From positions 1-57,507 of the IMG/VR virus record IMGVR_UViG_3300045944_000157: 57,507 nt of DNA; one strand, written 5' to 3'. How positions within the stretch are numbered: position 1 is the stretch's first letter; the number at the start of each line of letters is the position of its first letter. Shown here in pieces: positions 21,979-50,104 of the stretch. The position numbers and the translations under genes were made by a program. This DNA is from a virus (taxonomy: Duplodnaviria > Caudoviricetes). The notes beneath the pieces are model-generated. The model was not told where the DNA came from. It did no database searches and was given only the letters and a program-made list of their open reading frames with translations.

Positions 21979-22039
21979 ATGCGCACATACTACATGTGGG
22001 GTCCATGCCCTACGACCCTGTGTCCTGATTATCCAATGA

Positions 22040-22052
22040 AATCAATGGGTTA
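22040..22052 (+). promoter_or_regulatory. IHF-consensus site
   Basis: AATCAATGGGTTA matches WATCAANNNNTTR, in non-coding DNA near terS. Confidence 0.55.
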
Positions 22053-22278
22053 GTGTACATCTAAGTGATTGTAGTGATAGCGAACTGCACTCGAAGAGTG
22101 CACAGATTACAGTGTCACCCCATTGTTGTTGTCTCATTCTCTCTCTTACATCTTGATGTAAGAGAACCAGTGCTATCCCCTTATCCCCTCCTCTCACCAT
22201 GTACCCTCAGTACCCTTAAGGGACTGAGGTGTGTGTGGTGATTGGCCTTCCATTGTCTTGGTGCCGACAGTCATCTCG

Positions 22279-22863
22279 CTACTCGACATCTTCGATGTCT
22301 CCGTTGCTCTTTCCGGGCGAAACCTCTTGGGCATCAGGAAGAACCCTTGGTTCTGGATGTGAAACATGTTCGATGGTTTCATGCCGAAAGAGTTCGCGAA
22401 GTTTGCTTCGCAATTCCAGTTCCACTTCCTCCGGCCTTCTCTCCGTCCTGTCTTCGACAGAGCGAACCTCTCGAAACATCGAAACCAGATCGATTTTGCC
22501 TAAGGCAATCAATGCGGCGATCCGTTCCGATGGCTTCGCGTCTTCTCTCCGGCTTTCTTTCATCAAGCCGGAGAACACGTGCCGACGAATGGCCACGGCA
22601 TCCCGATGCATAGCCTTCTCCTGCTCCGTAAGGAGCATTTCCACCCTATGTTTGATCTTGTCCTGCTTCATCAGCTTGGATGCCGAGACATTGACCGTCG
22701 ATGACTTACCGCCCGCACTGTAAGTAGCGCGGTAAGCTGCCGAGAGCGTCTCTCCCCGAGCCACCAATTGCGCGAAAGCTTCCTGCCTTGGTGTGAGATC
22801 GGAGGCCAGTCTGGTCGGCAAACCAAGGCTTTGTCGTAAACTGTTTTGCGGCATAACGGTCAC
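22279..22863 (-). CDS. terS: Terminase small subunit
   Basis: LTPRQEAFA..V..G.....AYR..Y.......ASKL.....I..R pattern. Confidence 0.8.
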   Translation of the reverse strand: MTVMPQNSLRQSLGLPTRLASDLTPRQEAFAQLVARGETLSAAYRATYSAGGKSSTVNVSASKLMKQDKIKHRVEMLLTEQEKAMHRDAVAIRRHVFSGLMKESRREDAKPSERIAALIALGKIDLVSMFREVRSVEDRTERRPEEVELELRSKLRELFRHETIEHVSHPEPRVLPDAQEVSPGKSNGDIEDVE

Positions 22864-23055
22864 CGTGTCCTAAACCCTATGGGGGTTTAGAAATTCTAGT
22901 CAGAACCCCGATGATTTGCCAAGTGGTCCGGCTCCAATACCCAAGGGGATTGGAGCGTCTGCGGGGGCGCATCATGCCCGCATCATGACGCGAGTTTTCT
23001 TCACGCCTGTTTCCCTACGCATTATGCGCAGGAGAAATCGCGCATGGAAAAAGGC

Positions 23056-23084
23056 TTGCCATTTGTCGTCCGGTTTGGGATTGT
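23056..23084 (+). promoter_or_regulatory. Putative early sigma70-type promoter
   Basis: TTGCCA-N17-GATTGT at the divergence point; -10 is weak. Confidence 0.4.
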
Positions 23085-23094
23085 TTGGGGGTCG

Positions 23095-23400
23095 AAAGCA
23101 GGATTGCTCCGACAGCGGAAAGCCGGATGGCTCCCGCCAAAAAGCATCTCTCCGGAGAAACCGGGGGCCGCAAGCACCGCTGTGAAGCGAAGCTTGGTGA
23201 AGGCAGAACAAATCCGGACAGTTTTGCGGCGATCATGGATAACGAAGTGATCGAAAGTCAGCGAAGCTGGTCGTGGCAAAGAGCAATCTTGTGATGCTTT
23301 GCCGCCCACACTCCTCCTCACGATTGCTGCGGGATCAAGCTGCAAACTCAGCAAAAGCTGAAAGGCGAAGCTTGGTCCTTCAACAATCCTGAAAGGATTA
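23095..23400 (+). ncRNA. Candidate structured leader / ncRNA
   Basis: Many nested helices incl. 23099-109/23281-291; three GCGAAGCT(T)GGT copies; no convincing ORF. Confidence 0.5.
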
Positions 23401-23404
23401 CGTT

Positions 23405-24010
23405 ATGACGAAAACTGCCAAAACCGTTGCCAAGTCGGAAGTCTCCTCCCGTGAGGAGCTGCTCGCCAGCGTCTCACAGTTTGAATTTCAAACTTGTGAG
23501 ATCGTCGGCGGACGGAATTTCCCCATTGGGGAGAAATTCGACTGCATCAAGGTCGGGGTTTCCGGCTACGGCAAGCCCTACACGGTCATCTCCGTCAACG
23601 GAGAAGACCGGTTCTGCGATCCGAAGAACCTCAAGGTTCTTAAGCCGATGACCGAAGCCAAGATCGCCGCCGCTAAAGCGGCGCTGGAAGAGGCAAAAGA
23701 GGCAACCCTGATCGTCGGCGGAACCATCAAGAATGAGAGTGAGAAAGCAGTTCTCATCTCTCATCATGGCTGGTTCAAGCCGAAGTGGTTTCCCAAGTCT
23801 CTGGTCACCAAGATTGGTGACCATGAAGACGGCGAGCAGAACCTCTATGAGGTTCCTCGTTGGAAAATCCATGCCGATCATGGTCCGGCTGGCGTGAAGG
23901 CTCTCGCGGCACTCCAAGATGGCTATGAAGCCATGTTGGAGCCGGAAGAAAAGCCGGAACCCAAGGTCGTCGTCCGTACCGGTAAGTATACCGGTAAGGT
24001 CAAGAAGTGA
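23405..24010 (+). CDS. Early hypothetical protein
   Basis: 201 aa, AAGGA RBS; ESEKAVL...WFPKS motif. Confidence 0.8.
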   Translation: MTKTAKTVAKSEVSSREELLASVSQFEFQTCEIVGGRNFPIGEKFDCIKVGVSGYGKPYTVISVNGEDRFCDPKNLKVLKPMTEAKIAAAKAALEEAKEATLIVGGTIKNESEKAVLISHHGWFKPKWFPKSLVTKIGDHEDGEQNLYEVPRWKIHADHGPAGVKALAALQDGYEAMLEPEEKPEPKVVVRTGKYTGKVKK

Positions 24011-24017
24011 TCTCTGA

Positions 24018-24088
24018 AAAATCGCATGACCTCCCCTCCGAAAGGAGGGGAGAGCGGGCGATTTTGCCCTGAATGAGGAGCCAACAAA
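24018..24088 (+). repeat. Intergenic structured element copy 1
   Basis: AAAATCGC-ATGA-c-CTCCCCTCC-GAAA-GGAGGGGAG-a-GCGG-GCGATTTT-GCCC..TGAGGAGCCAA. Confidence 0.92.
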
Positions 24089-24265
24089 ATGCCATTTGAT
24101 CCCAATGATCTCGCTGAAATGCTCTTGGTAAAAGAGCACTTCATCGATGAGCGAAACTTCGCCATGTCGATGCGGGATTGGCCGAAAGTTTCTGTCATCC
24201 GACAGAAACTCAAGCACGTTGAAAACCGGATTGCTTCGATCCGGTTTCAGCAAAAGACCGCCTGA
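24089..24265 (+). CDS. Cassette ORF, 58 aa (absent from ORF track)
   Basis: MPFDPNDLAEMLL...RFQQKTA; exactly fills the space between copies 1 and 2. Confidence 0.8.
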   Translation: MPFDPNDLAEMLLVKEHFIDERNFAMSMRDWPKVSVIRQKLKHVENRIASIRFQQKTA

Positions 24266-24331
24266 GAAATTGCATGGGATGGGGTCCACTGGACCCCATT
24301 ACGGGCAATTTCGCCCTTTTGAGGAGCCAAA
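24266..24331 (+). repeat. Intergenic structured element copy 2
   Basis: GAAATTGC-ATGG-GATGGGGTCC-ACT-GGACCCCATT-ACGG-GCAATTTC-GCCC..TGAGGAGCCAA. Confidence 0.92.
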
Positions 24332-24586
24332 ATGCAAGTTCTCACGAAAGCACAGAAACTCGCTTTGAAGCGAGTTTTTGATCGGACGCCTCTTTTCGTC
24401 CTTTGGGACGGAAAGTGCTTCATGCCGACTTCCACCGAAGGGTGGAATGCTCACAAGAGACTGGATCAACCGACAATGACCTACCGGTCATTTCGGTACA
24501 CCGCAGTCACCAGCTTTGGGACGTTAATCGTCCCATGGTGTGGAATGTGGCTGGCCATCGAAACCGATGGCTACACCCACTCTTAG
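24332..24586 (+). CDS. Cassette ORF, 84 aa
   Basis: C-terminal W.GMWLAIE.DGYTHS; bounded by repeats. Confidence 0.8.
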   Translation: MQVLTKAQKLALKRVFDRTPLFVLWDGKCFMPTSTEGWNAHKRLDQPTMTYRSFRYTAVTSFGTLIVPWCGMWLAIETDGYTHS

Positions 24587-24657
24587 AGATCGCATGATAT
24601 CTCCTCCGACTTGTCGGAGGGGATAGCGGGCAATCTCGCCCTATTGAGGAGCCAAAA
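24586..24657 (+). repeat. Intergenic structured element copy 3
   Basis: GAGATCGC-ATGA-TATCTCCTCCGAC-TT-GTCGGAGGGGATA-GCGG-GCAATCTC-GCCC..TGAGGAGCCAA. Confidence 0.92.
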
Positions 24658-24993
24658 ATGGTTGGAATGCTGAACATCGGTACAGTGTCCCATGGGACAC
24701 TGCGTCCGCAAGATTTGCTCCGTAGGTTTTCCCAAACCTACGAGCAATACTTCAGCGATGAAACGGATTACAATCCGTTTCTTTACATGGCAGCTAACTT
24801 GTTAGCTGCCACTCTGGATGATCTCGAAGGAGATCATGTTGCCGACCACATCTATGAGCATGTCGATTATACAATCGACAAGCTTATAGAGAAGCTGGAA
24901 GGCTTGGCTTCCCGTCATAACTGTTACTTCGGAACCACCGAAGGTGACGGTTCGGATTTCGGCTTCTGGCCGAATGAAGGCGGCGAAGCTTAG
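24658..24993 (+). CDS. Cassette ORF, 111 aa acidic
   Basis: GTVSHGTLR..DL..F and YFG..EGDGSDFGFW motifs; bounded by repeats. Confidence 0.8.
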   Translation: MVGMLNIGTVSHGTLRPQDLLRRFSQTYEQYFSDETDYNPFLYMAANLLAATLDDLEGDHVADHIYEHVDYTIDKLIEKLEGLASRHNCYFGTTEGDGSDFGFWPNEGGEA

Positions 24994-25065
24994 GAATTGC
25001 ATGACTTCCCCACTGAGAAATCAGTGGGGAATGCGGGCAATTCCGCCCTGAATTGAGGAGCCAAG
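24993..25065 (+). repeat. Intergenic structured element copy 4
   Basis: GGAATTGC-ATGA-c-TTCCCCACTGA-GAAA-TCAGTGGGGAA-t-GCGG-GCAATTCC-GCCC..TGAGGAGCCAA. Confidence 0.92.
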
Positions 25066-25287
25066 ATGACTGAAAGAGCACAACTTTTCGCCCAGAGACT
25101 TCGTGATCTGGACGAATGCATTGCTGAAAGCAAGGCATCGGAACACTACGATCCGAAAAACGACTACTGGACCCATCTCAAAGAGATGGAAATTCAGGCT
25201 TTCGCCAAAGGCGATGGTGTCGTTTGGCGGGTCAATGACCGGCCTTACATCGTCTTCGATACCATCGATAGCCGATGGTATTCCTGA
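25066..25287 (+). CDS. Cassette ORF, 73 aa
   Basis: Bounded by repeats 4 and 5. Confidence 0.8.
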   Translation: MTERAQLFAQRLRDLDECIAESKASEHYDPKNDYWTHLKEMEIQAFAKGDGVVWRVNDRPYIVFDTIDSRWYS

Positions 25288-25355
25288 GAAATTGCATGGG
25301 ATGCCCTCTCTCAGAGAGGGCATTACGGGCAATTTCGCCCTTTGAGGAGCCAAAC
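25288..25355 (+). repeat. Intergenic structured element copy 5
   Basis: GAAATTGC-ATGG-GATGCCCTCTC-TCA-GAGAGGGCATT-ACGG-GCAATTTC-GCCC..TGAGGAGCCAA. Confidence 0.92.
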
Positions 25356-25535
25356 ATGATCCTGCTTTGGATATCGACATATATGTCGATCTTCACGATG
25401 GGAATTCTTGCCATCATTGTGGGGACTTCCCCACAATTCGGTTGGCCGGAATATTCCGCCACCATTCTTGCGATACTTTTCGGTATCGGCGCAGCAACGA
25501 CGTTGCTGGAAATTGGTCGGAGGGAACGTCGATGA
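25356..25535 (+). CDS. Cassette ORF, 59-aa two-TM protein
   Basis: MILLWISTYMSIF...; starts at the RBS of repeat 5. Confidence 0.75.
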   Translation: MILLWISTYMSIFTMGILAIIVGTSPQFGWPEYSATILAILFGIGAATTLLEIGRRERR

Positions 25536-25615
25536 TCTACATTCTTGTTCCAGTGATAGCTTTGCTATCGTGGTACATCGTTTATCTCGAAACAACGAAA
25601 GGAGATCGCAAATGA
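25532..25615 (+). CDS. 27-aa single-TM peptide
   Basis: MIYILVPVIALLSWYIVYLETTKGDRK; GGAGGG RBS; ATGA overlaps. Confidence 0.5.
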   Translation: MIYILVPVIALLSWYIVYLETTKGDRK

Positions 25616-25917
25616 AATGTCTCCACTTCGTTGGTTTCACCAACGAAGAACAAATCAGGAAGGCTTCCCGAATATTCGGGGAGCCTCATTTCATACATCC
25701 CAAATGGGATGTCAGAGCCGAGCAAGAATTGGATGTAGACGATGTAATCGTCTACGCCAATGGAACACCGAGGAGAGCGGAAGAACGTGAGTTCTTCCTG
25801 AGTGTGGGCGGCAAGCAAGGGGGTGGGCGCATGATGCGCCTGCCCCCTTTTTTTTGCTCAAAATTCAGCTACTATCGCAGACATGCGCTACATACCCGGA
25901 TACGAAGAACGCTATAG
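25612..25917 (+). CDS. Hypothetical protein (HFVGF...A.R.FG.P.FIH..WD.RA)
   Basis: AAGGAG RBS before ATG 25612; 3' end runs through a terminator-like hairpin. Confidence 0.6.
   Translation: MKCLHFVGFTNEEQIRKASRIFGEPHFIHPKWDVRAEQELDVDDVIVYANGTPRRAEEREFFLSVGGKQGGGRMMRLPPFFCSKFSYYRRHALHTRIRRTL
25819..25856 (+). terminator. Intrinsic terminator ending the cassette operon
   Basis: GGGGGTGGGCGC-ATGAT-GCGCCTGCCCCC then T run. Confidence 0.7.
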
Positions 25918-26230
25918 AATAGATCAAAACGGCAATGTTTTCTGTAATCATAAGAATAGATTTCTGAAACCAACCCTGCACCCTTCAGGGTATCTATTTG
26001 TGTCTCTAGCAAAAGGGACAAAAAATTATCCATTGCGAAAGCAATACAAGATCAATTACTTAGTCGCACTTACTTATATCGGACCAAGGCCAAAGGGCTT
26101 GGTCTGTTGCCACAATGATGGGAACAAACTCAACAATCACCTCTCGAATATCAGATGGGACACCCAAAAATCGAACATCCACGATGCAATCGTGGCCGGT
26201 ACGTTTACCGGGCGACCACGTAAGCACTAG
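25883..26230 (+). CDS. NUMOD4-HNH homing endonuclease
   Basis: IPGYE..Y.I...G.V, GY..V.L, LVA..YIG, CHNDGNK.NN..SN.RW.T...N; AT-rich relative to flanks. Confidence 0.85.
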   Translation: MRYIPGYEERYRIDQNGNVFCNHKNRFLKPTLHPSGYLFVSLAKGTKNYPLRKQYKINYLVALTYIGPRPKGLVCCHNDGNKLNNHLSNIRWDTQKSNIHDAIVAGTFTGRPRKH

Positions 26231-26702
26231 TTTTTTCGCGCACGCGCGAGGGGGGGCAGCAGACACGCGATCCCGGTACTTAATCGTCCGGTCCCAAAAA
26301 AGCGATTTTCCAAAAGACCAGCTAAATCTTTGATCTGAAAGAATGTCGTGGACACACTAGAGGGGTGGCAAAATTCAAGAGGTATTTTTGCCCCCCTCTC
26401 AAATGTCAAATCCTACCCATACCCCCCATAGGTAGGAAAAAACTGGCGAAATGCCTGTCAAAGCGTTGATCTTAAAGATGCGGACGCTGTGGACGGTTCA
26501 ATCCGTACACATTCTGGCTGGCCAAAAAGCAGAAAGGCTCTCGCAACATTGGCCGAAGCCAGTCACGGAGCCTTTCGCTACTGGCGTTTCAACTCACCCC
26601 TCACAGGGTTTCGCTTACTTTGTCAGCTAAGTGGTTATAGGGCGCATGATGCCAATTGGCAATGCCAAAATAGCAGACATGCGATCCCTTTAGCACGGTC
26701 TT

Positions 26703-26862
26703 GTAAAGACACATGTTTGGCTGTCCCATAACGTAAGAATGTTTGCGTTTAACCAATTACCAAAAGTGGTAGTAACTTATTGATATCATTGATGATATTA
26801 ACGAAAACCTTATCACACGCAAGAATGTTTAAGTTATGGGACGAACAAACATGTTTCCTTAC
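26703..26862. repeat. 46-bp imperfect inverted repeat with central IHF-consensus site
   Basis: Arms 26703-26748 and 26817-26862, 36/46 matches by hand; TAACTTATTGATA at 26773-26785. Confidence 0.8.
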
Positions 26863-26964
26863 GCGCCCGTACTAACGTTCATCCCTTGATATCTGAGTGA
26901 AATCCGGTGGCAAAAATCGTCCGGTGCCGGTAAGGTTTTGGTTCGATCAGGGAGACGCACATTT

Positions 26965-27921
26965 ATGTCAAACAAGCATGCACCAGACCCGTTGGTCTAT
27001 CTGCCGCCAGAAGACGCAGAACGCTTCATGATCCTTATCATGACGCATCTGGTCGATTGGCCGCTCAAAACCGCTGAAAGTTTCAGAAATGCAGTTCTGG
27101 GAAACGGTGCCATTGCCGTCAATCCCCTGCTTGGCATCGAAAACGACAACGATGTCAGCTTCCTCAAATCATCCCTTAAGAAGGTGATTGCCGAAGGCCG
27201 AATGATCGATTTCGGCTTCATTCCCAATGAACTCTACAAGACTGAAAGTCTGCGCTCCCGTCGCATGTTTGAAAGCGGCGATTTCCAGCATCCCTACGAC
27301 ACTTGGCTGGGCATCGCATCGTGGGAAGGCGGTTCATGCGGCTACTATTTCACACCGCATCCCGCTGACCCAAGCATGATCCTGTGCATCGAACTCTATG
27401 GGGTATCGGTGCCGCAAGTCGGTGACGCCATCCTCATCTACGATATCATTTCCATAGAAGTGAAAGGCATCGGCCAAACGCTGGTCCATCCGGCACCGAT
27501 GAAGCATGTCCAAGGATACAGCACCTATTTTGGCCAGACTGAGGAAGAGGCTGGAGCGGCACGTGGCGCAAATACGCTGGACCCAATGGTCACCATGCTT
27601 CGTATCTTGGCTGATGCATCGATCCCAATTGTGGATCGACCGGCACCGGTCAAGCTGAACAAACACAGAGTGAAGAAAGGGCTGTGGGAAATCCCTGCCC
27701 ATACCGCTGTTCTGACCAAAGATTACGTCACCGCTTTTAGAGCCGCACAGGCTGGCATGCATGAAAAAGGTACGCATGCATCACCCGTGGCGCATTGGCG
27801 TAGAGCACATAAGAGAACGTTGGCCGATGGACGCATTGTCCCAGTTCGCTCGTCCAAGGTGAATTGGAGGGAGACGGAGGAACTGCACCGTCTGTTCTAC
27901 CGAGTACCGGAAAAGAAGTGA
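26965..27921 (+). CDS. Hypothetical phage protein with SP..H.RR.H.R C-terminal motif
   Basis: AGGGAG RBS; GTHASPVAHWRRAHKR. Confidence 0.75.
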   Translation: MSNKHAPDPLVYLPPEDAERFMILIMTHLVDWPLKTAESFRNAVLGNGAIAVNPLLGIENDNDVSFLKSSLKKVIAEGRMIDFGFIPNELYKTESLRSRRMFESGDFQHPYDTWLGIASWEGGSCGYYFTPHPADPSMILCIELYGVSVPQVGDAILIYDIISIEVKGIGQTLVHPAPMKHVQGYSTYFGQTEEEAGAARGANTLDPMVTMLRILADASIPIVDRPAPVKLNKHRVKKGLWEIPAHTAVLTKDYVTAFRAAQAGMHEKGTHASPVAHWRRAHKRTLADGRIVPVRSSKVNWRETEELHRLFYRVPEKK

Positions 27922-28178
27922 TGTACGGTACAGACATCGAGAAATGCATCGCTTGCGGTGACAATTCGGACGTGATCGACAGCCGTCCGGTCCCGGCAAC
28001 AGGTTTCAGAAGAAGACGGCGGCAATGTCCGCATTGCAAGCGCCGCTGGAGCACCTTCGAAGTGTCGGAAGAAACCTACAGGGTAATCCTTGCAACCGAG
28101 AAGCTTGAGCAACTGGCAGACACGCTGGAGGAACAGGCCAAATCACTAAGGCAACTGACTAAAGGAGAAACCGAATGA
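27921..28178 (+). CDS. NrdR-like Zn-ribbon protein with coiled coil
   Basis: CIACG...VIDSR......RRRRQCPHC..RW.T.E. Confidence 0.75.
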   Translation: MYGTDIEKCIACGDNSDVIDSRPVPATGFRRRRRQCPHCKRRWSTFEVSEETYRVILATEKLEQLADTLEEQAKSLRQLTKGETE

Positions 28179-28477
28179 GAAAGAACGAAAAGACAGCCTT
28201 GACGCCTGATGAGGTGTTGCGTGTAGCCTATGCAGACATCATTAGAGATATCGATCAGGACGATCTCGCCGCCCTGCTCAACGTGAATTCGGGGCGCGTG
28301 GCCGAGGCTGTCATCGCCATACGTTGGGCCATGCATAACCACAAGCTGATCTACAGGCACATCCAGAAACAGAAGAACGGCAGAAAGAAACTGGCAGTCG
28401 CGGAGGTCGTTGAAAACGGGCAGGGCACAATGAAATTCATAGAGGATGGCGACGGTCTGAGAATAACACATGGGTAG
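28175..28477 (+). CDS. Hypothetical HTH-like protein
   Basis: DQDDLAALLNVNSGRVAEA; AGGAGA RBS. Confidence 0.65.
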   Translation: MRKNEKTALTPDEVLRVAYADIIRDIDQDDLAALLNVNSGRVAEAVIAIRWAMHNHKLIYRHIQKQKNGRKKLAVAEVVENGQGTMKFIEDGDGLRITHG

Positions 28478-28763
28478 CAGGATTGGGCGAGGGAAAAAGG
28501 TCAAAATGAAAGACCGCATCAAATGCAGGCTGATGGATGAAATCCTGAAAGGTAACAATATCTACATTGCCGAGACGGTACTTAGTGAGAAGTCCTTCCT
28601 TCTGTATGCCAACAATGACCAGCACACCGAGCCTTGTGACGATCTGTTTATGTGGAAGGGCTATGCCATGCCATTGGTGTCGCAGCCCGTTACGCTCAAG
28701 GATGCCTTGGCGATAGTCGATACACACTGGGACAGCAGGATAAAGATAAATGACATGGCGTGA
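28470..28763 (+). CDS. Hypothetical protein
   Basis: Overlapping operon ORF. Confidence 0.55.
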   Translation: MGSRIGRGKKVKMKDRIKCRLMDEILKGNNIYIAETVLSEKSFLLYANNDQHTEPCDDLFMWKGYAMPLVSQPVTLKDALAIVDTHWDSRIKINDMA

Positions 28764-29178
28764 TCATGGCATACACGCAAGGCTGCACAAGAACCTCACC
28801 GAACTGCTGAAGCGCGGTGAAGTGAACATCACGCTGACCTGTGTTCATATCAACCAGCCTGTCGAGGATGAACGCTTCCACGAGGGCATCTGGCAGTATC
28901 TGGCGCATGCTGGCGCTTTCGTGACCGGTCAGACTGACAGCGATGAAGCGTCACAGTGTTTCGGGTGCGAGAAAGACTGGACATGGAAACGTGTCATCCG
29001 TGGGTTTGTGCTCATGGAGTTTATCGATGTAAATGGTCAGAGCGCGATGGGTACGGTCACCGGATTGTGCCCTATATGTTGGGGTAATGAGCAGAGACTG
29101 TTGAAGGCATTCGAGCGTGATTTCGGCATCAAGCCGGATCAGATACGACGGGTGCATCACGAAGGGGGGCACGCCTGA
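28750..29178 (+). CDS. Hypothetical Zn-binding protein
   Basis: CFGC and CPIC pairs. Confidence 0.6.
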   Translation: MTWRDHGIHARLHKNLTELLKRGEVNITLTCVHINQPVEDERFHEGIWQYLAHAGAFVTGQTDSDEASQCFGCEKDWTWKRVIRGFVLMEFIDVNGQSAMGTVTGLCPICWGNEQRLLKAFERDFGIKPDQIRRVHHEGGHA

Positions 29179-29420
29179 TGATGAAATTCATGACGAACAG
29201 TGAAGCTAGATGCATCGTTGAGGATATGGGCGACCGTATCCTCACCACGGAACAGGTTCTGGAGATACTCCCGGTCAGCAAATCAACGCTGTGGAGACTG
29301 GAGAAACAGGGCATTTTCCCAAGGCACTTCAAGGTCGGTTCCCGCAAGAACGGTTGGCTGGAAAGCGATGTCCAAAGCTGGATCGATAATGTCCAAGAGG
29401 GCAACATCACCGTCAAATGA
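29178..29420 (+). CDS. AlpA-family HTH (excisionase/regulator)
   Basis: IL...QV.....VSKSTLWR....G.FP.......R..GW.ES.V..WI. Confidence 0.85.
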   Translation: MMKFMTNSEARCIVEDMGDRILTTEQVLEILPVSKSTLWRLEKQGIFPRHFKVGSRKNGWLESDVQSWIDNVQEGNITVK

Positions 29421-29782
29421 GGAACCTCAATCTGCTGAACGCCTACCGCTGTATCGGACCAGATATCATCAAATATTTCGGCAGCACAGGAGATCACACA
29501 TGTGGGTTCTTCGTGGTGCCGTCGCCCATCGACAAGGGCGAGATGAAGGTCATGGCATCGTCAGACTACGATTGGGACCATGTTTCGGTATCGCGTCCCA
29601 ATCGATGCCCAAACTGGACAGAAATGGAACATGTCCGACATCTGTTCTTCAAGGATGACGAAACTGTCATGCAACTGCATGTGCCAGTGGTTGACCACAT
29701 TTCGGTACACCCGAACTGTCTCCACATGTGGCGACCGCAAAAGCAGGAAATACCAAGACCACCTTCGATCTTGGTGGCTTAG
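29417..29782 (+). CDS. Conserved phage protein (WDHVSVS..RCP.W.EM family)
   Basis: HVSVS, P.W.EM, Q.H, H.NCLH.W motifs. Confidence 0.8.
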   Translation: MRNLNLLNAYRCIGPDIIKYFGSTGDHTCGFFVVPSPIDKGEMKVMASSDYDWDHVSVSRPNRCPNWTEMEHVRHLFFKDDETVMQLHVPVVDHISVHPNCLHMWRPQKQEIPRPPSILVA

Positions 29783-29790
29783 GGGTAGAT

Positions 29791-30114
29791 ATGGCAAAGG
29801 GTAGGCCGCTCCGCTTCATATCGGGGAACTACATTGATCGCGTCAACGATGCGGTGTTTGTCGAAATAGGCGAAACCACCGTCTATTTCGCTGACCGCAA
29901 GGTGATCGCGATGTACGCCCACGATGCGCTTTATCGCGTCAATGCGCTCGACAGCGGCATCATGTACAAACGTGTGCGGAGCGCCATGCTGCGACACAAG
30001 CCACGCAAGGTGCATGAGATGAAGCGTGAAGACCTGAATGCAATGGTCGAGGCTGCGATCATGACCATGGCGTCCAAGCTGGTGGATGAAAAGCTGGGGC
30101 TGGAAACCGCATGA
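29791..30114 (+). CDS. Hypothetical protein, probable paralogue of 30814..31167
   Basis: V.IGE...YF.....I and LVD..L shared pattern. Confidence 0.65.
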   Translation: MAKGRPLRFISGNYIDRVNDAVFVEIGETTVYFADRKVIAMYAHDALYRVNALDSGIMYKRVRSAMLRHKPRKVHEMKREDLNAMVEAAIMTMASKLVDEKLGLETA

Positions 30115-35416: not shown

Positions 35417-36542
35417 CATCATCGAAAGCATCAAGGCAGCGGAAGCAGAGGCTATGGAACCCAAGATCAATCCCGAATTCAGAGACTTGCTCGACATCCA
35501 GTCGGAGGTTTCCTACGAGGAACTGAAGAAGATGATCGAAGCGGAGGGTATTCGCGATCCCATCGTCGTATGGGCAGAGCAGAACGTGATTGCGGACGGT
35601 CATAACCGTTTCAAGATCGCCAAGGAACTGGGCATCGAATGCCCACGAGTGGACAAGTCCTTTGCCGACGAGGCCGAGGTCAAGACGTGGATCATTCGCA
35701 ACCAGTTGGGGCGGCGCAACCTCACTCCGGCACGCTTCGAATACTACATCGGCAAACTCTACAACGAGCAGAAGGCTGAGACTGCACAGGAAAAGCAGGA
35801 AGGCGGCGGCAACGTTGCCGAGAAGCTGGCGGCTGAATTCGAAGTGTCGGAGAAGACCGTTCGTCGCTACGGCACCAATGCCAAGGGCATCGACGCCATC
35901 GAACGCATCCGTGGCAAGCTTGAGAAGAACAAGCAGTTGTCGAACAAGCCGACCTACACCAGTGAGGAAGTCGCCGTCATCGGACAGGCTCCCAACACCA
36001 CGGTTGCGGCGAAGACCCTGAAGAACATCGATGACTATAAGAAGCAGAAGGCAGAGAAGAAGCAGGAAGACAAGGCTATCAAGGCTGCTGTGGTGGACAA
36101 GCAGACCTACTACGGTGTCGCCCTGTGTGAGCCAGACTTCTCCGCTTCCGGTTTCTCCATCTCGACAGAGCCGAAGCCGACGCTCGACAAGAACGCCGCC
36201 TGCTATGTGATCGTGCCGGATGAGTGGCTGGCCGAGGGCATCAAGCTTCTCGACAAGTGGGGTCTGCGCTACGAGGCCAGCTTCATCTACTGGTCATCGG
36301 CCAAGATCGATGACGGTCAGTTCTCCAAGATCGTCCATCGCAACGTGTTGCTGGCGACCAAGGGCCAGATCACCGGACCCAAGGCAGGGCAGGAAGCATC
36401 CTCCTGTGTCCTGCTCAACGGTGATATCGGTCCTGCCGTGGTCAAGCTGATCGACAGCTACCACAACGGCAACACCAAGAAGCTGGACATGCGCCGTGGT
36501 GCCAAGGCCAACGGCAATTGGGAGATCGTCTCCGTCAAGTGA
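35409..36542 (+). CDS. ParB-like N-domain, HTH and degenerate MT-A70-like C-domain
   Basis: EGIRDPI.VW...DGHNR, NQLGRRNL, A.EF.VSEKTVRR; WG..Y...Y W and LLATKG with EPDF in place of DPPW. Confidence 0.75.
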   Translation: MASIIESIKAAEAEAMEPKINPEFRDLLDIQSEVSYEELKKMIEAEGIRDPIVVWAEQNVIADGHNRFKIAKELGIECPRVDKSFADEAEVKTWIIRNQLGRRNLTPARFEYYIGKLYNEQKAETAQEKQEGGGNVAEKLAAEFEVSEKTVRRYGTNAKGIDAIERIRGKLEKNKQLSNKPTYTSEEVAVIGQAPNTTVAAKTLKNIDDYKKQKAEKKQEDKAIKAAVVDKQTYYGVALCEPDFSASGFSISTEPKPTLDKNAACYVIVPDEWLAEGIKLLDKWGLRYEASFIYWSSAKIDDGQFSKIVHRNVLLATKGQITGPKAGQEASSCVLLNGDIGPAVVKLIDSYHNGNTKKLDMRRGAKANGNWEIVSVK

Positions 36543-36605
36543 TTGGGTAGCGAGGGGCCGGTTCGTCCGGCCCCTGTCTGAGCAATCACGCTCAAGGGGT
36601 AGACC
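36539..36605 (+). repeat. Diverged 6th copy of the intergenic structured element
   Basis: GTGATTG..AGGGGCCGG-TTCGT-CCGGCCCCT..GAGC-AATCAC-GCTC then RBS and ATG. Confidence 0.6.
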
Positions 36606-36788
36606 ATGACCAAGAAAGAACAAGCCGCCGCTCTGCGCAAGCAGATCGAATACCTCAAGCTGACCGAGGGCGCGAAGCTGTTCAATCTCACCGAACGCTA
36701 TCGCGAGAACTCCAAGCGGGCCATCGCCTTCAGGAAGAAGATCGACCGACTGGAGACTGAAATCGAGAAACTAGAGGGGGGCAAATGA
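36606..36788 (+). CDS. Small coiled-coil protein
   Basis: 60 aa, AGGGG RBS. Confidence 0.65.
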   Translation: MTKKEQAAALRKQIEYLKLTEGAKLFNLTERYRENSKRAIAFRKKIDRLETEIEKLEGGK

Positions 36789-49258: not shown

Positions 49259-50104
49259 ATGGAAGAATATGAGTGGGCAATGAGCAGTTATGTGAGGTCG
49301 AAGAAGTTCGAAAAGCTTTCTCCGAACTCCAAGAGAATATACAGCGACGGCATCGATACTCTGGCACCGTACTTCAGCGGTGTCCTGTTGAAGGATATCG
49401 ACAGGCCGATGGTGATCGCGTTCCGTGACGCACACTACGATCAACCGGGCAAGTGCCGGGTGGCGATCAATGTCCTGAAGAACATCCTTCAACACGCTTA
49501 TGACAAAGGCTGGGTGACCGGCAATGTCGCCATGAACCTGCGCGACATGCCGCCGTCCAAGGAGATCGAACGCTGGCAGGAGGATGAGATCGACAGGTTC
49601 TGTTCGACCGCACCCTTCCACATCAGGGATGCCATGATGCTGGCGCTCTACACGGGGCAGCGACGTTCCGATCTGGTGCGCATGTGCTGGTCCGACATCA
49701 ATGAGGAGAGCGGGTTGCTTTATGTGAAGCAGCGCAAGACGGGCGTCGAGCTGTGGATACCCATCCATCCCAAGCTGCGCCGTCATCTCGACGGGATGCA
49801 GAAACGCAAGAGCGTGCGAACGGTCTTCGCCCAGAACCACATCCTGACAAACCATTATGGGATGCCGTGGGTGCCTGAAAGTTTGCGTGCGGCTTTCAAG
49901 CGTCACTGTGCCAAGATCGGTCTGACGGGAAAGCAGTTGCATGGTGTGCGTAAGACTACCGCGTCGATCCTTGGCGAACTTGGTTGCACCGCACTCCAGA
50001 TCATGGCGATCACCGGTCACCAGTCCCTCAAGGAGGTCCAGCGTTACACGGTGGGTGCAGAGAAGAGGCGATTGGCAGAGGAGGCCATGGCGAAATGGCA
50101 ATGA
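49259..50104 (+). CDS. Tyrosine recombinase (core-binding plus catalytic domains)
   Basis: TGQRRSD, Q.KTG, HGVRKT, TGH, RYT catalytic set. Confidence 0.92.
   Translation: MEEYEWAMSSYVRSKKFEKLSPNSKRIYSDGIDTLAPYFSGVLLKDIDRPMVIAFRDAHYDQPGKCRVAINVLKNILQHAYDKGWVTGNVAMNLRDMPPSKEIERWQEDEIDRFCSTAPFHIRDAMMLALYTGQRRSDLVRMCWSDINEESGLLYVKQRKTGVELWIPIHPKLRRHLDGMQKRKSVRTVFAQNHILTNHYGMPWVPESLRAAFKRHCAKIGLTGKQLHGVRKTTASILGELGCTALQIMAITGHQSLKEVQRYTVGAEKRRLAEEAMAKWQ

Follow-up and report, generated by a model that had tools for sequence, protein, structure and literature searches.

Five successive intergenic spaces in a single polycistronic operon of a tailed, temperate soil phage are occupied by five ~70-nt units (24014-25355, + strand), and these units are sense-strand RNA structures under selection. 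They lie in the window, by which we mean the whole stretch of DNA analysed (57,507 nt of IMG/VR record IMGVR_UViG_3300045944_000157). We favour, with slightly less than even confidence, the reading that the units act as RNase III-type punctuation of the mRNA; we regard this as the best reading because the early intergenic spaces of T7, folded here, share the layout of the units.

Arrangement of the units and the operon

The initial annotation had described five ~70-nt units, each running from a stop codon to the next ATG, and this was borne out by the sequence, a pattern search, and a covariance model. The spaces 24011-24088, 24266-24331, 24587-24657, 24994-25065, and 25288-25355 each contained one unit. 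The pattern GCATGR-N15-40-GGGCRATYYYGCCC had five matches on the + strand, none on the - strand, and none in 100 shuffles, and TGAGGAGCCAA occurred exactly five times, once per unit, without variation and with an ATG after it. The covariance model built from the five copies scored them at 84-87 bits, and the next-best match in the window reached 13.6 bits (36536-36608). The copies and their parts are as follows.

u1, 24014..24088, + strand: between gene A (stop 24008-24010) and gene B (ATG 24089), 86.7 bits; outer stem 24018-24025/24058-24065; inner hairpin 24031-24052 with GAAA loop; GGGC 24056-24059; GCCC 24066-24069; TGAGGAGCCAA 24074-24084
u2, 24263..24331, + strand: between gene B (stop 24263-24265) and gene D (ATG 24332), 85.9 bits; outer stem 24266-24273/24305-24312; inner hairpin 24278-24300 with a G.U pair at its base; GGGC 24303-24306; GCCC 24313-24316; ribosome-binding-site (RBS) block 24320-24330
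u3, 24584..24657, + strand: between gene D (stop 24584-24586) and gene C (ATG 24658), 86 bits; outer stem 24586-24593/24630-24637 with one C.A mismatch, its first base being the G of TAG; inner hairpin 24598-24625, 12 bp with one U.G pair and a CUUG loop; GGGC 24628-24631; GCCC 24638-24641; RBS block 24645-24655
u4, 24991..25065, + strand: between gene C (stop 24991-24993) and gene E (ATG 25066), 83.8 bits; outer stem 24993-25000/25037-25044; inner hairpin 25006-25031, 11 bp with GAAA loop; GGGC 25035-25038; GCCC 25045-25048; RBS block 25054-25064
u5, 25285..25355, + strand: between gene E (stop 25285-25287) and gene F (ATG 25356), 87.4 bits; outer stem 25288-25295/25329-25336; inner hairpin 25300-25324; flanks identical to those of u2; GGGC 25327-25330; GCCC 25337-25340; RBS block 25343-25353

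No RNA family described in Rfam matched the units, a comparison on which the initial annotation had made their novelty depend. The whole window gave no Rfam match at gathering thresholds, and when 22800-26000 was searched at E-values up to 10, the units were touched only by chance matches of the miRNA type (18 bits against thresholds of 90-98).

The operon and its surroundings comprise the following features.

22864..23404, + strand: non-coding space separating gene A from the divergent small-terminase gene (22279-22863, - strand)
23405..25917, + strand: operon of small ORFs holding all five units
A 23405-24010, B 24089-24265, D 24332-24586, C 24658-24993, E 25066-25287, F 25356-25535, G 25532-25615, H 25612-25917, + strand: ORFs of the operon
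25817..25856, + strand: hairpin and T run resembling an intrinsic terminator (15 pairs, 10 of them G-C, then TTTTTTT), closing the operon

No Pfam family was found for A-F, the sole PHROG matches of the operon proteins were weak and of unknown function, and A, C, and D had no PDB relative at an E-value below 0.09. The hairpin at 25817-25856 is the sole terminator-like site on the + strand within 23405-25900. The space at 22864-23404 probably holds a predicted promoter and a long leader: several of its blocks are kept in all four phages compared here, among them a hexamer resembling TTGACA (TTGCCA at 23056-23061 in the window) and a small hairpin that surrounds the Shine-Dalgarno (SD) sequence of gene A. 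The operon may be an early one, judging by its position only. No RNA polymerase gene was found in the phage.

Fold, covariation, and strand

Each unit is an irregular hairpin with an 8-bp outer stem, a mismatched middle, and a variable GC-rich inner hairpin, followed by the invariant block and the ATG. The outer stem has the 8 bp given in the initial annotation in four of the five copies, u3 containing one C.A mismatch, and all of the arm variants listed there for individual copies are present; the inner hairpin does differ in sequence from copy to copy but measures 9-12 bp rather than 9-13 bp. What had been called a 4x4 internal loop is better described as A.G, U.G, and G-C followed by a purine-purine pair. 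The reported difference at that last pair is real, with A.G in u1, u3, and u4 and G.A in u2 and u5, and one more mismatch lies next to it in u1 and u4; because u2 and u5 have both flanks in common, the apparent swap may represent a single event. The helix spans 22-24 rungs in all eight copies known from the window and a relative (about two helical turns) despite inner stems of 9-12 bp, and the stop codon lies inside the 5' arm or 0-2 nt from it in seven of the eight, u1 being the sole copy whose stem begins 7 nt past the stop codon.

All five + strand units folded 4.2-7.2 standard deviations better than dinucleotide shuffles. Across seven copies (five from the window and two from the relative L014), 92.6% of cells paired, compared with 40-56% when the partners were slid, and 14 of 23 pairs were altered on both sides; none of 500 shuffles reached the observed values. 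The initial annotation had favoured RNA of the plus strand, and both strand signals point to the sense strand: 12 cells were G.U (A.C on the other strand) against three of the reverse kind, and among 14 four-base loops of intergenic hairpins and terminators in four phages there were nine GNRA, two UUCG, and one CUUG on the + strand and none on the - strand.

A second hairpin, GGGC-N6-GCCC, is invariant in the five window copies. As the initial annotation had stated, this hairpin shares bases with the 3' arm of the outer stem, along its first half and throughout its loop, but the full pseudoknot also proposed there would be implausible on steric grounds, since it would require every one of the six loop bases to pair; two alternative states of the 3' arm fit better. 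In every copy, a diverged sixth one among them, the outer stem and the small hairpin cannot form together. A compensatory GAGC/GCUC variant of the small hairpin occurs in L014 and in this sixth copy, which may lend the second hairpin some support, weak statistically: the seven aligned copies contain one compensatory event, 54 of 500 shuffles reached the observed value, and the GAGC/GCUC change also preserves pairing with the SD.

A sixth copy in the window

The sixth copy is the 13.6-bit match of the covariance model (E 0.03), with a minimum free energy of -37.5 kcal/mol (z -3.96). All of its outer-stem bases are unlike those of u1-u5, and the stop codon lies inside the stem.

36539..36608, + strand: sixth copy, after a ParB-like gene (stop 36540-36542) and before a 60-aa ORF (ATG 36606)
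36539-36545/36583-36589: outer stem; 36553-36575: GC-rich hairpin
GAGC 36580-36583, loop 36584-36589, GCTC 36590-36593: alternative hairpin

The sixth copy, the SD-sequestering type of unit in relatives, and the richness of the operon in hairpins, including its coding regions, are observations beyond those of the initial annotation.

Units in related phages

BLASTn analysis of 23400-26300 against 50,697 phage records gave no match. The unit type of the window was found in one other metagenomic phage only, L014, and the mismatched middle differs between the two, being A.G or G.A in the window and U.G in L014. Two further relatives, L021 and L039, carry at the same junctions a homologous two-hairpin unit that sequesters the SD. 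This unit forms a 19-24-rung helix in which 96.1% of cells were paired, compared with 41-48% when slid, and 14 of 19 pairs were changed on both sides, a result reached by none of 500 shuffles. Its anti-SD covaries with the SD and lies 30-45 nt past the stop codon, and the conserved mismatched middle is absent. The same gene junctions bear either an SD-open or an SD-sequestering module, which amounts to a natural experiment.

The initial annotation had asked whether relatives carry different ORFs between the same units. We found that in relatives the same genes recur between such units in rearranged order: A-B-D-C-E-F (window), A-B-C-F'-D (L014), and A-B-C-D-X (L039). Gene order and gene content differ among the four phages, and crossover points could not be placed in the units. 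Units are more alike within one genome than between genomes.

Proposed RNase III-type processing

The initial annotation had proposed that the units punctuate a polycistronic mRNA and had named the early RNase III sites of T7 as an analogue. The first of these ideas is supported as regards structure in the sense-strand RNA, with the cutting itself being a proposal, and the analogy agrees in layout with the T7 stretches folded here. In the T7 early spaces, a lower stem starting from the upstream UGA (two of five) was followed by an internal loop, a 9-10-bp upper hairpin, the SD, and the AUG, and three of the five spaces measured 63-81 nt. The T7 sites and the cleavage point were placed where we take them to be, the T7 record having no such annotation.

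Under the RNase III reading, a double-strand-specific endonuclease of this type from the host would cut the helix at or near the mismatched middle, as at the five early signals of T7. The upstream message would then end in the stable inner hairpin, which would block 3' exonucleases, while the freed 3' arm would refold into a 4-bp hairpin, GRGC-N6-GCYC, at the new 5' end and shield the 5'-monophosphate, leaving the fixed SD block open to ribosomes. Since the same ~70 nt recur between genes, the units are substrates for homologous recombination and gene conversion, and such exchange would explain both the likeness of units within a genome and the reordering of cassettes between genomes. Several observations count against the RNase III reading: the units lack sequence likeness to the T7 sites and are much more stable, hairpins are dense inside coding regions too, and the statistics of the small 5' hairpin are weak. 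A cut in the unit type of L021 and L039 would leave no 5' hairpin, and contigs from RNA libraries, which do not reveal RNA ends, span u1 (23955-24105) and u5 (25223-25354) uncut, although DNA may be present in these libraries and some transcripts could escape processing.

Should the units prove to be processing sites, punctuation of early operons in the manner of RNase III would not be peculiar to T7-like lytic phages and would have arisen independently in an unrelated lineage of temperate soil phages, with a conditional 5' hairpin and a fixed RBS block added. Because the modules are compact (~70 nt) and context-independent, they could serve as insulating connectors in synthetic operons.

Access to the SD and a ribosome-gated alternative

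The units could instead couple the translation of neighbouring genes, or insulate the RBS, without any cleavage, which we consider rather unlikely. A terminating ribosome would cover the 5' arm and open the outer stem, the 3' arm would pass into GGGC-N6-GCCC, and GCCCU would release the SD for translation of the next cistron; when the upstream gene is not translated, the outer stem would re-form. The position of the stop codon relative to the 5' arm and the mutual exclusion of the outer stem and the small hairpin agree with this mechanism, as do most of the predicted energies. When the 5' arm was blocked or removed in silico, a test whose outcome speaks for the RNase III reading too, the small hairpin (-6.1 kcal/mol) formed in four of the five window units and SD opening cost 0.9-3.6 kcal/mol; blocking lowered this cost from 3.5-5.5 to 1.6-2.6 kcal/mol in four of the five units. 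However, u2 shifted the opposite way (from 0.13 to 3.6 kcal/mol), and the "off" state is a weak, bulged 5-bp pairing that is closed no more than expected by chance. The late start of the u1 stem is a further difficulty, and the anti-SD of L021 and L039 lies beyond the reach of a terminating ribosome, so a coupling mechanism common to both unit types is hard to draw. At a minimum, the module would hold the SD in a fixed open context whatever the neighbouring gene. In keeping with such an insulator, the SD of this unit type is at least as open as it is behind a shuffled upstream sequence (31-100 of 100 shuffles closed it to the same degree or more).

Hairpin density across the operon

The operon has 8.1 hairpins of 9 bp or more per kb, compared with 0.96 per kb in the rest of the window, and L014, L021, and L039 gave corresponding values of 6.1-7.9 and 0.9-1.4 per kb; the whole operon, coding parts included, is thus about eightfold enriched in hairpins in all four phages. 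The window's coding sequence alone contains 14 hairpins where synonymous-codon shuffles predict 1.2, and the same comparison gave 7 against 0.85 in L014, 4 against 0.61 in L021, and 7 against 1.24 in L039, with none of 200 shuffles reaching the observed number in any of the four. Nine control genes contained 8 coding hairpins where 4.4 were expected, a number reached by 11 of 200 shuffles. A hairpin inside gene D persists in three phages; both partners have changed in 4 of its 10 pairs, and no pair is disrupted. This excess in coding sequence is an observation separate from the units, and we know of no established explanation for an excess kept by compensatory changes.

Because hairpins are dense in coding regions as well, selection for structured RNA in general could account for the intergenic hairpins, with no cutting involved. 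Under such a reading, which we also hold to be fairly improbable, the RNA of the whole operon would be selected for dense folding as protection against, for example, RNase E, 3' exonucleases, Rho loading, or RNA-targeting host defences; the intergenic hairpins would be simply the largest of the set, with flanks and RBS kept alike by gene conversion rather than by a specific function. The enrichment in all four phages, the coding excess, and the gene D hairpin all accord with it. It accounts neither for the conservation of the unpaired or mismatched middle (GCAUGR opposite RNGCGG) nor for the constant register relative to the stop codon, the overlap of the outer stem with the second hairpin, kept in three sequence variants, or the near-constant 22-24-rung helix. 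In addition, the coding hairpins are single stems of 9-14 bp, whereas composite two-turn helices are intergenic only.

A combined model, quite unlikely in our estimate, would describe an "armoured" transcript in which the cistrons of an RNA selected for dense hairpins, in its coding parts too, are joined by two-state connectors of SD-open (window, L014) or SD-sequestering (L021, L039) design that are swapped by gene conversion. The 3' arm of such a connector would switch to the local hairpin once a nuclease removes the 5' arm or a ribosome covers it. If this were true, the module would be a portable RNA "connector" that sets the processing, stability, and translation of any inserted gene, and the armoured transcript could possibly defend the first-expressed phage messages against host RNases or RNA-targeting immunity.

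DNA-level, promoter, and ribozyme readings

It is very unlikely that the units act as DNA, either as attC-like sites at which single-stranded DNA is recombined by the tyrosine integrase encoded at 49259-50104 or as a protein-binding inverted repeat like the extended start-associated sequences (ESAS). The core sites of attC are R'' (RYYYAAC) and R' (GTTRRRY). Such a role would suit the single-ORF cassettes, all in one orientation and each with an imperfect inverted repeat of variable centre behind it, the varying order of cassettes among relatives, and the presence of the integrase, which belongs to the general phage integrase family phrog_1 (E 1.9e-43) and lies 24 kb from the units; the fixed block directly before the ATG also recalls the start-associated sequences (SAS) as described in excerpts of PMC3203893. 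Against it, GTTRRRY is missing from the units, its sole match in 23092-26141 being at ~26128, and of 14 matches to the SAS consensus with at most three mismatches (16.4 expected by chance) none fell in a unit. The conserved blocks are 33-41 nt apart at a variable spacing, which is poor for a rigid protein site, and the arms covary, which a protein half-site does not need. RNA tetraloops and G.U pairs mark the sense strand, and the SD within the unit and its covariation with the anti-SD in relatives are meaningful only in mRNA. For attC-like recombination by this integrase, as put forward in the initial annotation, we found nothing in favour.

Highly improbable is a cassette of the PeSL (promoter-early stem-loop) kind, in which each unit would combine a stem-loop terminator or attenuator with the promoter of the next gene. 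The location and make-up (stop codon, stem-loop, SD, start) and the association with small, shuffling genes of unknown function are those given for PeSLs in excerpts of PMC2839356, and the first hairpin after gene A in L021 bears a T run. In the units themselves, by contrast, neither a sigma-70-like site (four in 22000-30000, none in a unit, scanned with a consensus that may not be the host's) nor a terminator-like site was detected; the stable G/C-rich inner hairpins are followed by AGCGGGC or similar rather than by a T run, and no hexamer pair keeps a fixed spacing because the length of the inner hairpin varies. A new self-cleaving ribozyme, which the initial annotation had also raised, is extremely improbable: the units are repeated, structured, phage-borne, without a family match, and conserved in their unpaired middle, but each is a single unbranched hairpin with only two or three non-canonical pairs and no junction, a true pseudoknot is unlikely, and the middle differs in L014 and is missing from the L021/L039 type.

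Comparison with known systems

The early precursor RNA of T7 contains five RNase III signals; mismatches or loops in a target can limit cutting to one strand, and 3' hairpins made by RNase III are determinants of stability (Nicholson review, PMC3867540, excerpts). Like our units, the T7 sites R0.3, R0.5, R1, R1.1, and R1.3 are several in one early polycistronic RNA that is closed by a terminator. The two sets are alike in the size of the intergenic space and in having an irregular hairpin whose lower stem and 9-12-bp upper hairpin are separated by a mismatched middle, with the SD and the AUG following within a few bases of the helix; at the T7 0.4/0.5 and 0.7/1 junctions the lower stem even starts at the upstream stop codon, as in the units. 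The likeness is one of layout only, as no shared sequence block was seen on reading the two side by side. T7 conserves the upper stem, whereas the upper stem of the units varies and conservation lies in their lower stem, middle, and RBS; the units are also far more stable (-33 to -40 kcal/mol compared with -17 to -26 kcal/mol for the T7 stretches), and the T7 stretches folded show neither a second 4-bp hairpin that excludes the first helix nor a fixed RBS block of 11 nt. A further difference is that the phage in the window is temperate, bears an integrase, and yielded no RNA polymerase gene.

The PeSLs of T4-type phages are intergenic modules reaching from stop to start, with a G/C-rich stem-loop and short homologies that reshuffle cassettes (PMC2839356, excerpts; see also PMC4122927). 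A strong sigma-70 promoter and a terminating stem-loop define the PeSLs, and neither was detected in the units; the units lie inside one transcript and have a covarying long-range pairing and a two-state 3' arm.

Integron attC sites and the units are both imperfect inverted repeats with a variable centre that follow single promoterless ORFs in one orientation and in variable order. The R'/R'' core is missing from the units, which carry the SD of the next gene. An attC site acts as the folded bottom strand of DNA, whereas the strand signals of the units are those of sense RNA, and the integrase encoded in the window matches the general phage family phrog_1.

The SAS of Cluster K mycobacteriophages are fixed, asymmetric blocks with an AGGAGCC-like SD, placed in one orientation a few bases before the ATG of non-structural genes and preceded in about half of cases by an imperfect inverted repeat with a variable spacer (PMC3203893, excerpts). 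The 13-bp SAS consensus, with at most two mismatches, does not occur in the units. The ESAS has 17-bp arms and a 4-13-bp spacer, compared with 8-bp arms and a 33-41-nt hairpin spacer in the units; its authors saw no compensatory support for an RNA hairpin and favoured a DNA-binding protein, whereas compensation in the units is strong. Excerpts of a 2025 account still give the function of SAS and ESAS as unknown (PMC12699233), and among these unsolved "start-associated" repeats the units described here provide a clear case of RNA covariation.

Repeated units of the first right-arm operon

The window spans an entire IMG/VR virus record of 57,507 bases with an estimated completeness of 94%. Between 24011 and 25355 there are five successive intergenic spaces, each bounded by a stop codon and the following ATG, and a single unit of 69-75 nt (u1 to u5) fills each one. 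A two-block pattern matched the window five times on the + strand, never on the - strand and never in 100 shuffles, and TGAGGAGCCAA occurred exactly five times, each 2-5 nt upstream of an ATG. The covariance model that the initial annotation had called for was built from the five copies, which scored 84-87 bits versus 13.6 bits for the next best place in the window with filters off. These pattern counts and the score gap bear out the five units noticed earlier in consecutive intergenic spaces as real repeats, far beyond chance.

Proteins encoded on the left arm (- strand) are the tail fibre proteins, major head protein, portal, large and small terminase subunits and endolysin; those of the right arm are a ParB-like protein, HNH endonucleases, an ATPase, a primase/helicase, an exonuclease, a tyrosine integrase and a 2137-aa protein. 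Neither an RNA polymerase gene nor an RNase III gene was recognised in the window. The features concerned are as follows.

23405-25917 (+): unit-bearing operon, first of the right arm, with genes A (201 aa), B (58 aa), D (84 aa), C (111 aa), E (73 aa), F (59 aa), G (27 aa) and H
25817-25849: operon-closing terminator-like hairpin of 15 pairs with a T run
36539-36608: sixth, diverged unit (13.6 bits), after the ParB-like gene in another operon, with the plan of u1-u5 in different letters

The small terminase gene is divergent from the operon, with a non-coding space of 540 nt between them, and the position of the operon suggests that it is early. For genes A-F, no Pfam family and no PDB relative were found, and PHROG gave only weak matches of unknown function. 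ORF H (25612-25917) runs through the terminator hairpin and overlaps the start of an HNH gene, and its true end is uncertain.

Structure, covariation and strand of the units

RNAalifold and single-sequence folds agreed on the plan of the unit. Its outer stem has 8 bp and leads through an unpaired A to a U.G and a G-C pair with purine-purine oppositions on either side, and then to an inner hairpin of 9-12 bp with a distinct sequence in each copy. On the + strand, all five units folded 4.2-7.2 standard deviations below dinucleotide shuffles. An alignment of seven window-type copies (u1-u5 plus the two units of the related metagenomic phage L014) had standard pairs in 92.6% of cells, versus 40-56% when partners were slid by 1-3 columns; both sides had changed in 14 of the 23 pairs, and the observed values were reached by none of 500 shuffles. 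Twelve cells were G.U on the + strand, and thus A.C on the other, versus three of the reverse kind (C.A in the outer stems of u3 and the second L014 unit, plus one in u1). Among 14 four-base loops of intergenic hairpins and terminators in four phages, nine were GNRA, two UUCG and one CUUG on the + strand, and none was of these types on the - strand. Because of the G.U strand bias and the + strand tetraloops, the folded molecule is most likely the sense RNA. With high confidence, we regard the units as sense-RNA structures that are under selection and linked to the ribosome-binding site.

A second hairpin, GGGC-N6-GCCC, is invariant in the window units, and its last two stem bases and whole loop also serve as the outer stem's 3' arm, which makes the two structures mutually exclusive. 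The initial annotation was right about this invariant hairpin and its overlap; the pseudoknot that it proposed appears sterically implausible, as all six loop bases would need pairing, and was set aside. Covariation supports the small hairpin weakly, since the seven aligned copies contain one compensatory event (one L014 unit has GAGC...GCUC where the others have GGGC...GCCC) and 54 of 500 shuffles reached the observed value. The same change also preserves pairing with the ribosome-binding block before the ATG (SD).

The sixth copy has a fully covaried 7-bp outer stem with the stop codon within it, a mismatched middle and a 9-bp G/C-rich hairpin. Its 3' arm provides the loop and one stem base of a 4-bp hairpin, GAGC-N6-GCUC, followed by the SD and ATG; the overlap of the two structures is therefore conserved in three sequence variants.

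Search for copies and relatives

Three DNA-pattern scans of IMG/VR and one of a metagenome collection returned 1, 14, 5 and 10 stretches. When these were scored with the covariance model of the window-type unit, the only true match was L014, a 12.5-kb contig with two full units (62.8 and 71.1 bits), and the others reached at most 31 bits. The L014 contig was also present in the metagenome collection (L029), and L030, a short contig, has an identical sequence. Three further stretches (L006, L031 and L035) looked like chance matches on reading and were rejected as unit carriers. A protein search of viruses with gene A found L021 first, and a later search returned L014 and L021 only; no gene A homologue was found in genomes. 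The gene D search found L039. Besides L039 and L040, none of the 64 viral gene C loci searched carried a unit, the best score being 19.4 bits.

L021 and L039 carry another unit type at the same junctions as the window. The stop codon is followed by a G/C-rich hairpin, in which the loop is GAAA or UUCG, by a linker, (G)CUCUUGCG, by a second hairpin of 11-13 bp and free sequence, by UU(U)GAGGAGCCAC or UUUUAGGAGCCAUC, and by the AUG. The SD is paired by CUCUU in the linker, so that its stem and the second hairpin form a single helix of 19-24 rungs. In seven copies of this type, 96.1% of cells paired, versus 41-48% when slid, and 14 of 19 pairs, including four of the SD stem, had changed on both sides, values reached by none of 500 shuffles. 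Two copies with insertions after GGAG carry matching anti-SD insertions. A pattern scan for this type matched only its own two phages, and its covariance model found only its seven training copies, with none in the window or in L014. With the first hairpin, CUCU... and the same RBS block but no outer stem, the L014 A/B junction seems to be a vestige of this type. Three of the relatives' units (L021 2300-2320 and 2596-2612; L039 3235-3250) have a further small hairpin, which the last codons of the upstream gene form with the first intergenic bases and whose loop contains the stop codon.

Units are more alike within a genome than between the same junctions across genomes: the two L014 units share the inner hairpin too, u2 and u5 share both flanks, and in L039 units 1 and 3, and 2 and 4, pair up. 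This likeness may reflect recent duplication or gene conversion. Among the arguments that the initial annotation named against its functional models was a gene order fixed in relatives, and the order varies among the four phages: A-B-D-C-E-F in the window, A-B-C-F'-D-HNH in L014, A-B-C-D-X in L039 and A-B-Y-TM in L021. As the order is not fixed, that argument does not apply.

No Rfam family matched the window at gathering thresholds; by the initial annotation, such a match would have removed novelty. In a permissive search of 22800-26000, only chance-level miRNA matches touched a unit. BLASTn against INPHARED phages gave no match. Since Rfam, the deposited phages and literature directed at analogues yielded no match, no near relative and no report, respectively, the element appears to be undescribed, and as far as these collections show it is confined to four uncultivated soil phages. 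The stretch 23000-26000 was present whole in 18 soil metagenome runs of one year, and 13-29% of its words were present in six soil metatranscriptomes; thus, this phage or a near-identical one recurs in those samples, some of which may be its source.

Other genes and surroundings of the operon

Gene C (24658-24993) belongs to a widespread family of small phage proteins with the invariant C-terminal motif CYFG...GDGSDFGFWP and no known function, with homologues at 66 viral loci and seven bacterial genome loci. The latter come from unrelated phyla (Chromatiaceae and relatives, Sphingomonas, Halanaerobiaceae, Sporomusaceae and Terriglobales), so no host can be named. A GcrA-like match and alphaproteobacterial sRNA matches at the terminator were sub-threshold and were discarded as host clues.

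A non-coding space of about 450 nt precedes gene A (window 22940-23404; L014 9520-9989; L021 925-1414; L039 2150-2660), with several blocks conserved in all four phages. One is a TTGACA-like hexamer, and another, the small hairpin AAUCC-UGAA-AGGAUU, encloses the gene A SD in three of the four. This space may hold the operon promoter, operators and a structured leader. After the operon, a free-standing HNH endonuclease gene is present in the window (25883-26230) and in L014 (11815-12252). The window protein (NUMOD4 and HNH_3) has no BLASTp likeness to that of L014, which suggests independent homing-endonuclease insertions at one boundary. In the 2137-aa protein (51001-57414, - strand), the first 150 residues match a methyltransferase-annotated family and the C-terminal 900 residues match giant phage proteins of phrog_14770 (E 5.5e-121), of unknown function; possibly it is injected and acts against restriction, as DarB of P1 does.

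Possible functions of the units

Every copy of either type has an irregular intercistronic helix of two turns, a stable hairpin and a fixed SD block. An RNase III-type enzyme would cut the two-turn helix, and the stable hairpin would remain on the upstream RNA. Because such cutting fits both unit types and the layout of phage T7, we tentatively favour it, by analogy, as the function of the units. Simulated 3' products starting one base before GGGC had a -6.1 kcal/mol hairpin at their 5' end for the sixth copy and for four of u1-u5, and SD opening costs of 0.9-3.6 kcal/mol across the six window copies. Hairpins at the 5' end can protect mRNAs.

Four soil metatranscriptome runs were compared as contigs, which cannot show RNA ends, strand or level and in which DNA is possibly present. 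Contigs span u1 (23955-24105) and u5 (25223-25354, with adapter on both sides), possibly from DNA. Contig starts at 25060 and 25065, from two studies, cannot show RNA ends. The units, which make up 15% of 23405-25850, contain 11 of the 32 contig ends in that stretch; most contigs are single 151-nt reads, so the two ends of a contig depend on each other, and reads and assemblies can also break at stable hairpins, for which reasons no conclusion is drawn from this count. Uncovered stretches likewise carry no meaning.

A ribosome-gated coupling switch or insulator, acting without cutting, is unlikely. When the first bases after the stop codon were blocked in silico, as by a terminating ribosome, the small hairpin formed in u2-u5, and the SD opening cost fell from 3.5-5.5 to 1.6-2.6 kcal/mol in four of five units and rose in u2. 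A rule links the stability of SD hairpins to expression. Neither SD sequestration nor contact of the stop codon with the helix is common to both unit types. In the relatives' type, opening the SD costs 3.9-9.2 kcal/mol, and 1-65 of 100 shuffles were at least as closed; in window-type units, the cost is 0.1-4.5 kcal/mol, 31-100 of 100 upstream shuffles were at least as closed, and the C/U-rich upstream runs sit in hairpins, leaving the SD open. SD sequestration was rejected as the function of the window type, in which the SD is no more closed than with shuffled upstream sequence.

We also doubt that the units are passive 'armour', part of a hairpin excess that extends over the whole operon in all four phages.

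Perfect hairpins of at least 9 pairs in the operon span: number per kb versus the rest; coding-only number observed versus expected from synonymous-codon shuffles
Window, 23405-25860: 8.1 versus 0.96; 14 versus 1.2
L014, 9990-11800: 6.1 versus 1.4; 7 versus 0.85
L021, 1415-2870: 7.6 versus 1.1; 4 versus 0.61
L039, 2661-4560: 7.9 versus 0.9; 7 versus 1.24

The coding-only counts were reached by none of 200 shuffles in each phage; nine other window genes had 8 hairpins versus 4.4 expected (11 of 200 shuffles). One gene D hairpin is kept in three phages, with four of ten pairs changed on both sides and none broken. We know of no established explanation for such an excess in coding sequence. The coding hairpins are single stems of 9-14 bp, and the intergenic ones alone are composite two-turn helices. 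A general link between gene C and hairpin density was rejected: 64 pooled loci had 0.8-1.1 per kb near gene C versus about 0.5-0.6 upstream, and the hairpins of the only outlier (L084) are unrelated.

A DNA-level site is improbable, as what we take to be the attC core motif is absent from the units. A PeSL-like promoter-terminator is more improbable still. The available part of their description shows T4-type PeSLs to be like the units in position, stem-loop and SD, with a role in shuffling that the units may share, and defines them by a sigma-70 promoter and a terminating stem-loop; in contrast, a consensus scan found no sigma-70-like or terminator-like site in any unit, although the host may use promoters of another type. 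A ribozyme is scarcely credible.

Comparison with known systems

The SAS/ESAS elements of Cluster K mycobacteriophages, as far as the accessible text describes them, resemble the units in having a fixed block before the ATG and an inverted repeat upstream; no function has yet been assigned to them. Their consensus is absent here, and their authors, in that text, report having seen no compensatory changes in favour of an RNA hairpin; for our units such support is strong.

RNase III-type cutting, the reading preferred here, has its model in T7. When folded here, T7 early intergenic stretches showed a lower stem of 5-6 bp, an internal loop, an upper hairpin of 9-10 bp, the SD and AUG, and the upstream UGA is where the lower stem starts at two junctions, 0.4/0.5 and 0.7/1. 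The T7 record used does not annotate the RNase III sites, whose positions and cleavage point are presumed here. The layouts are alike and the sequences unrelated; the T7 stretches fold less stably, and conservation falls on the upper stem in T7 and on the lower stem in the units. According to the available portion of Nicholson's review, the T7 early precursor contains five RNase III signals, loops or mismatches in a target can restrict cutting to one strand, and the 3' hairpins left by RNase III cuts are stability determinants. The element is new as a motif, and its arrangement is of a known kind.
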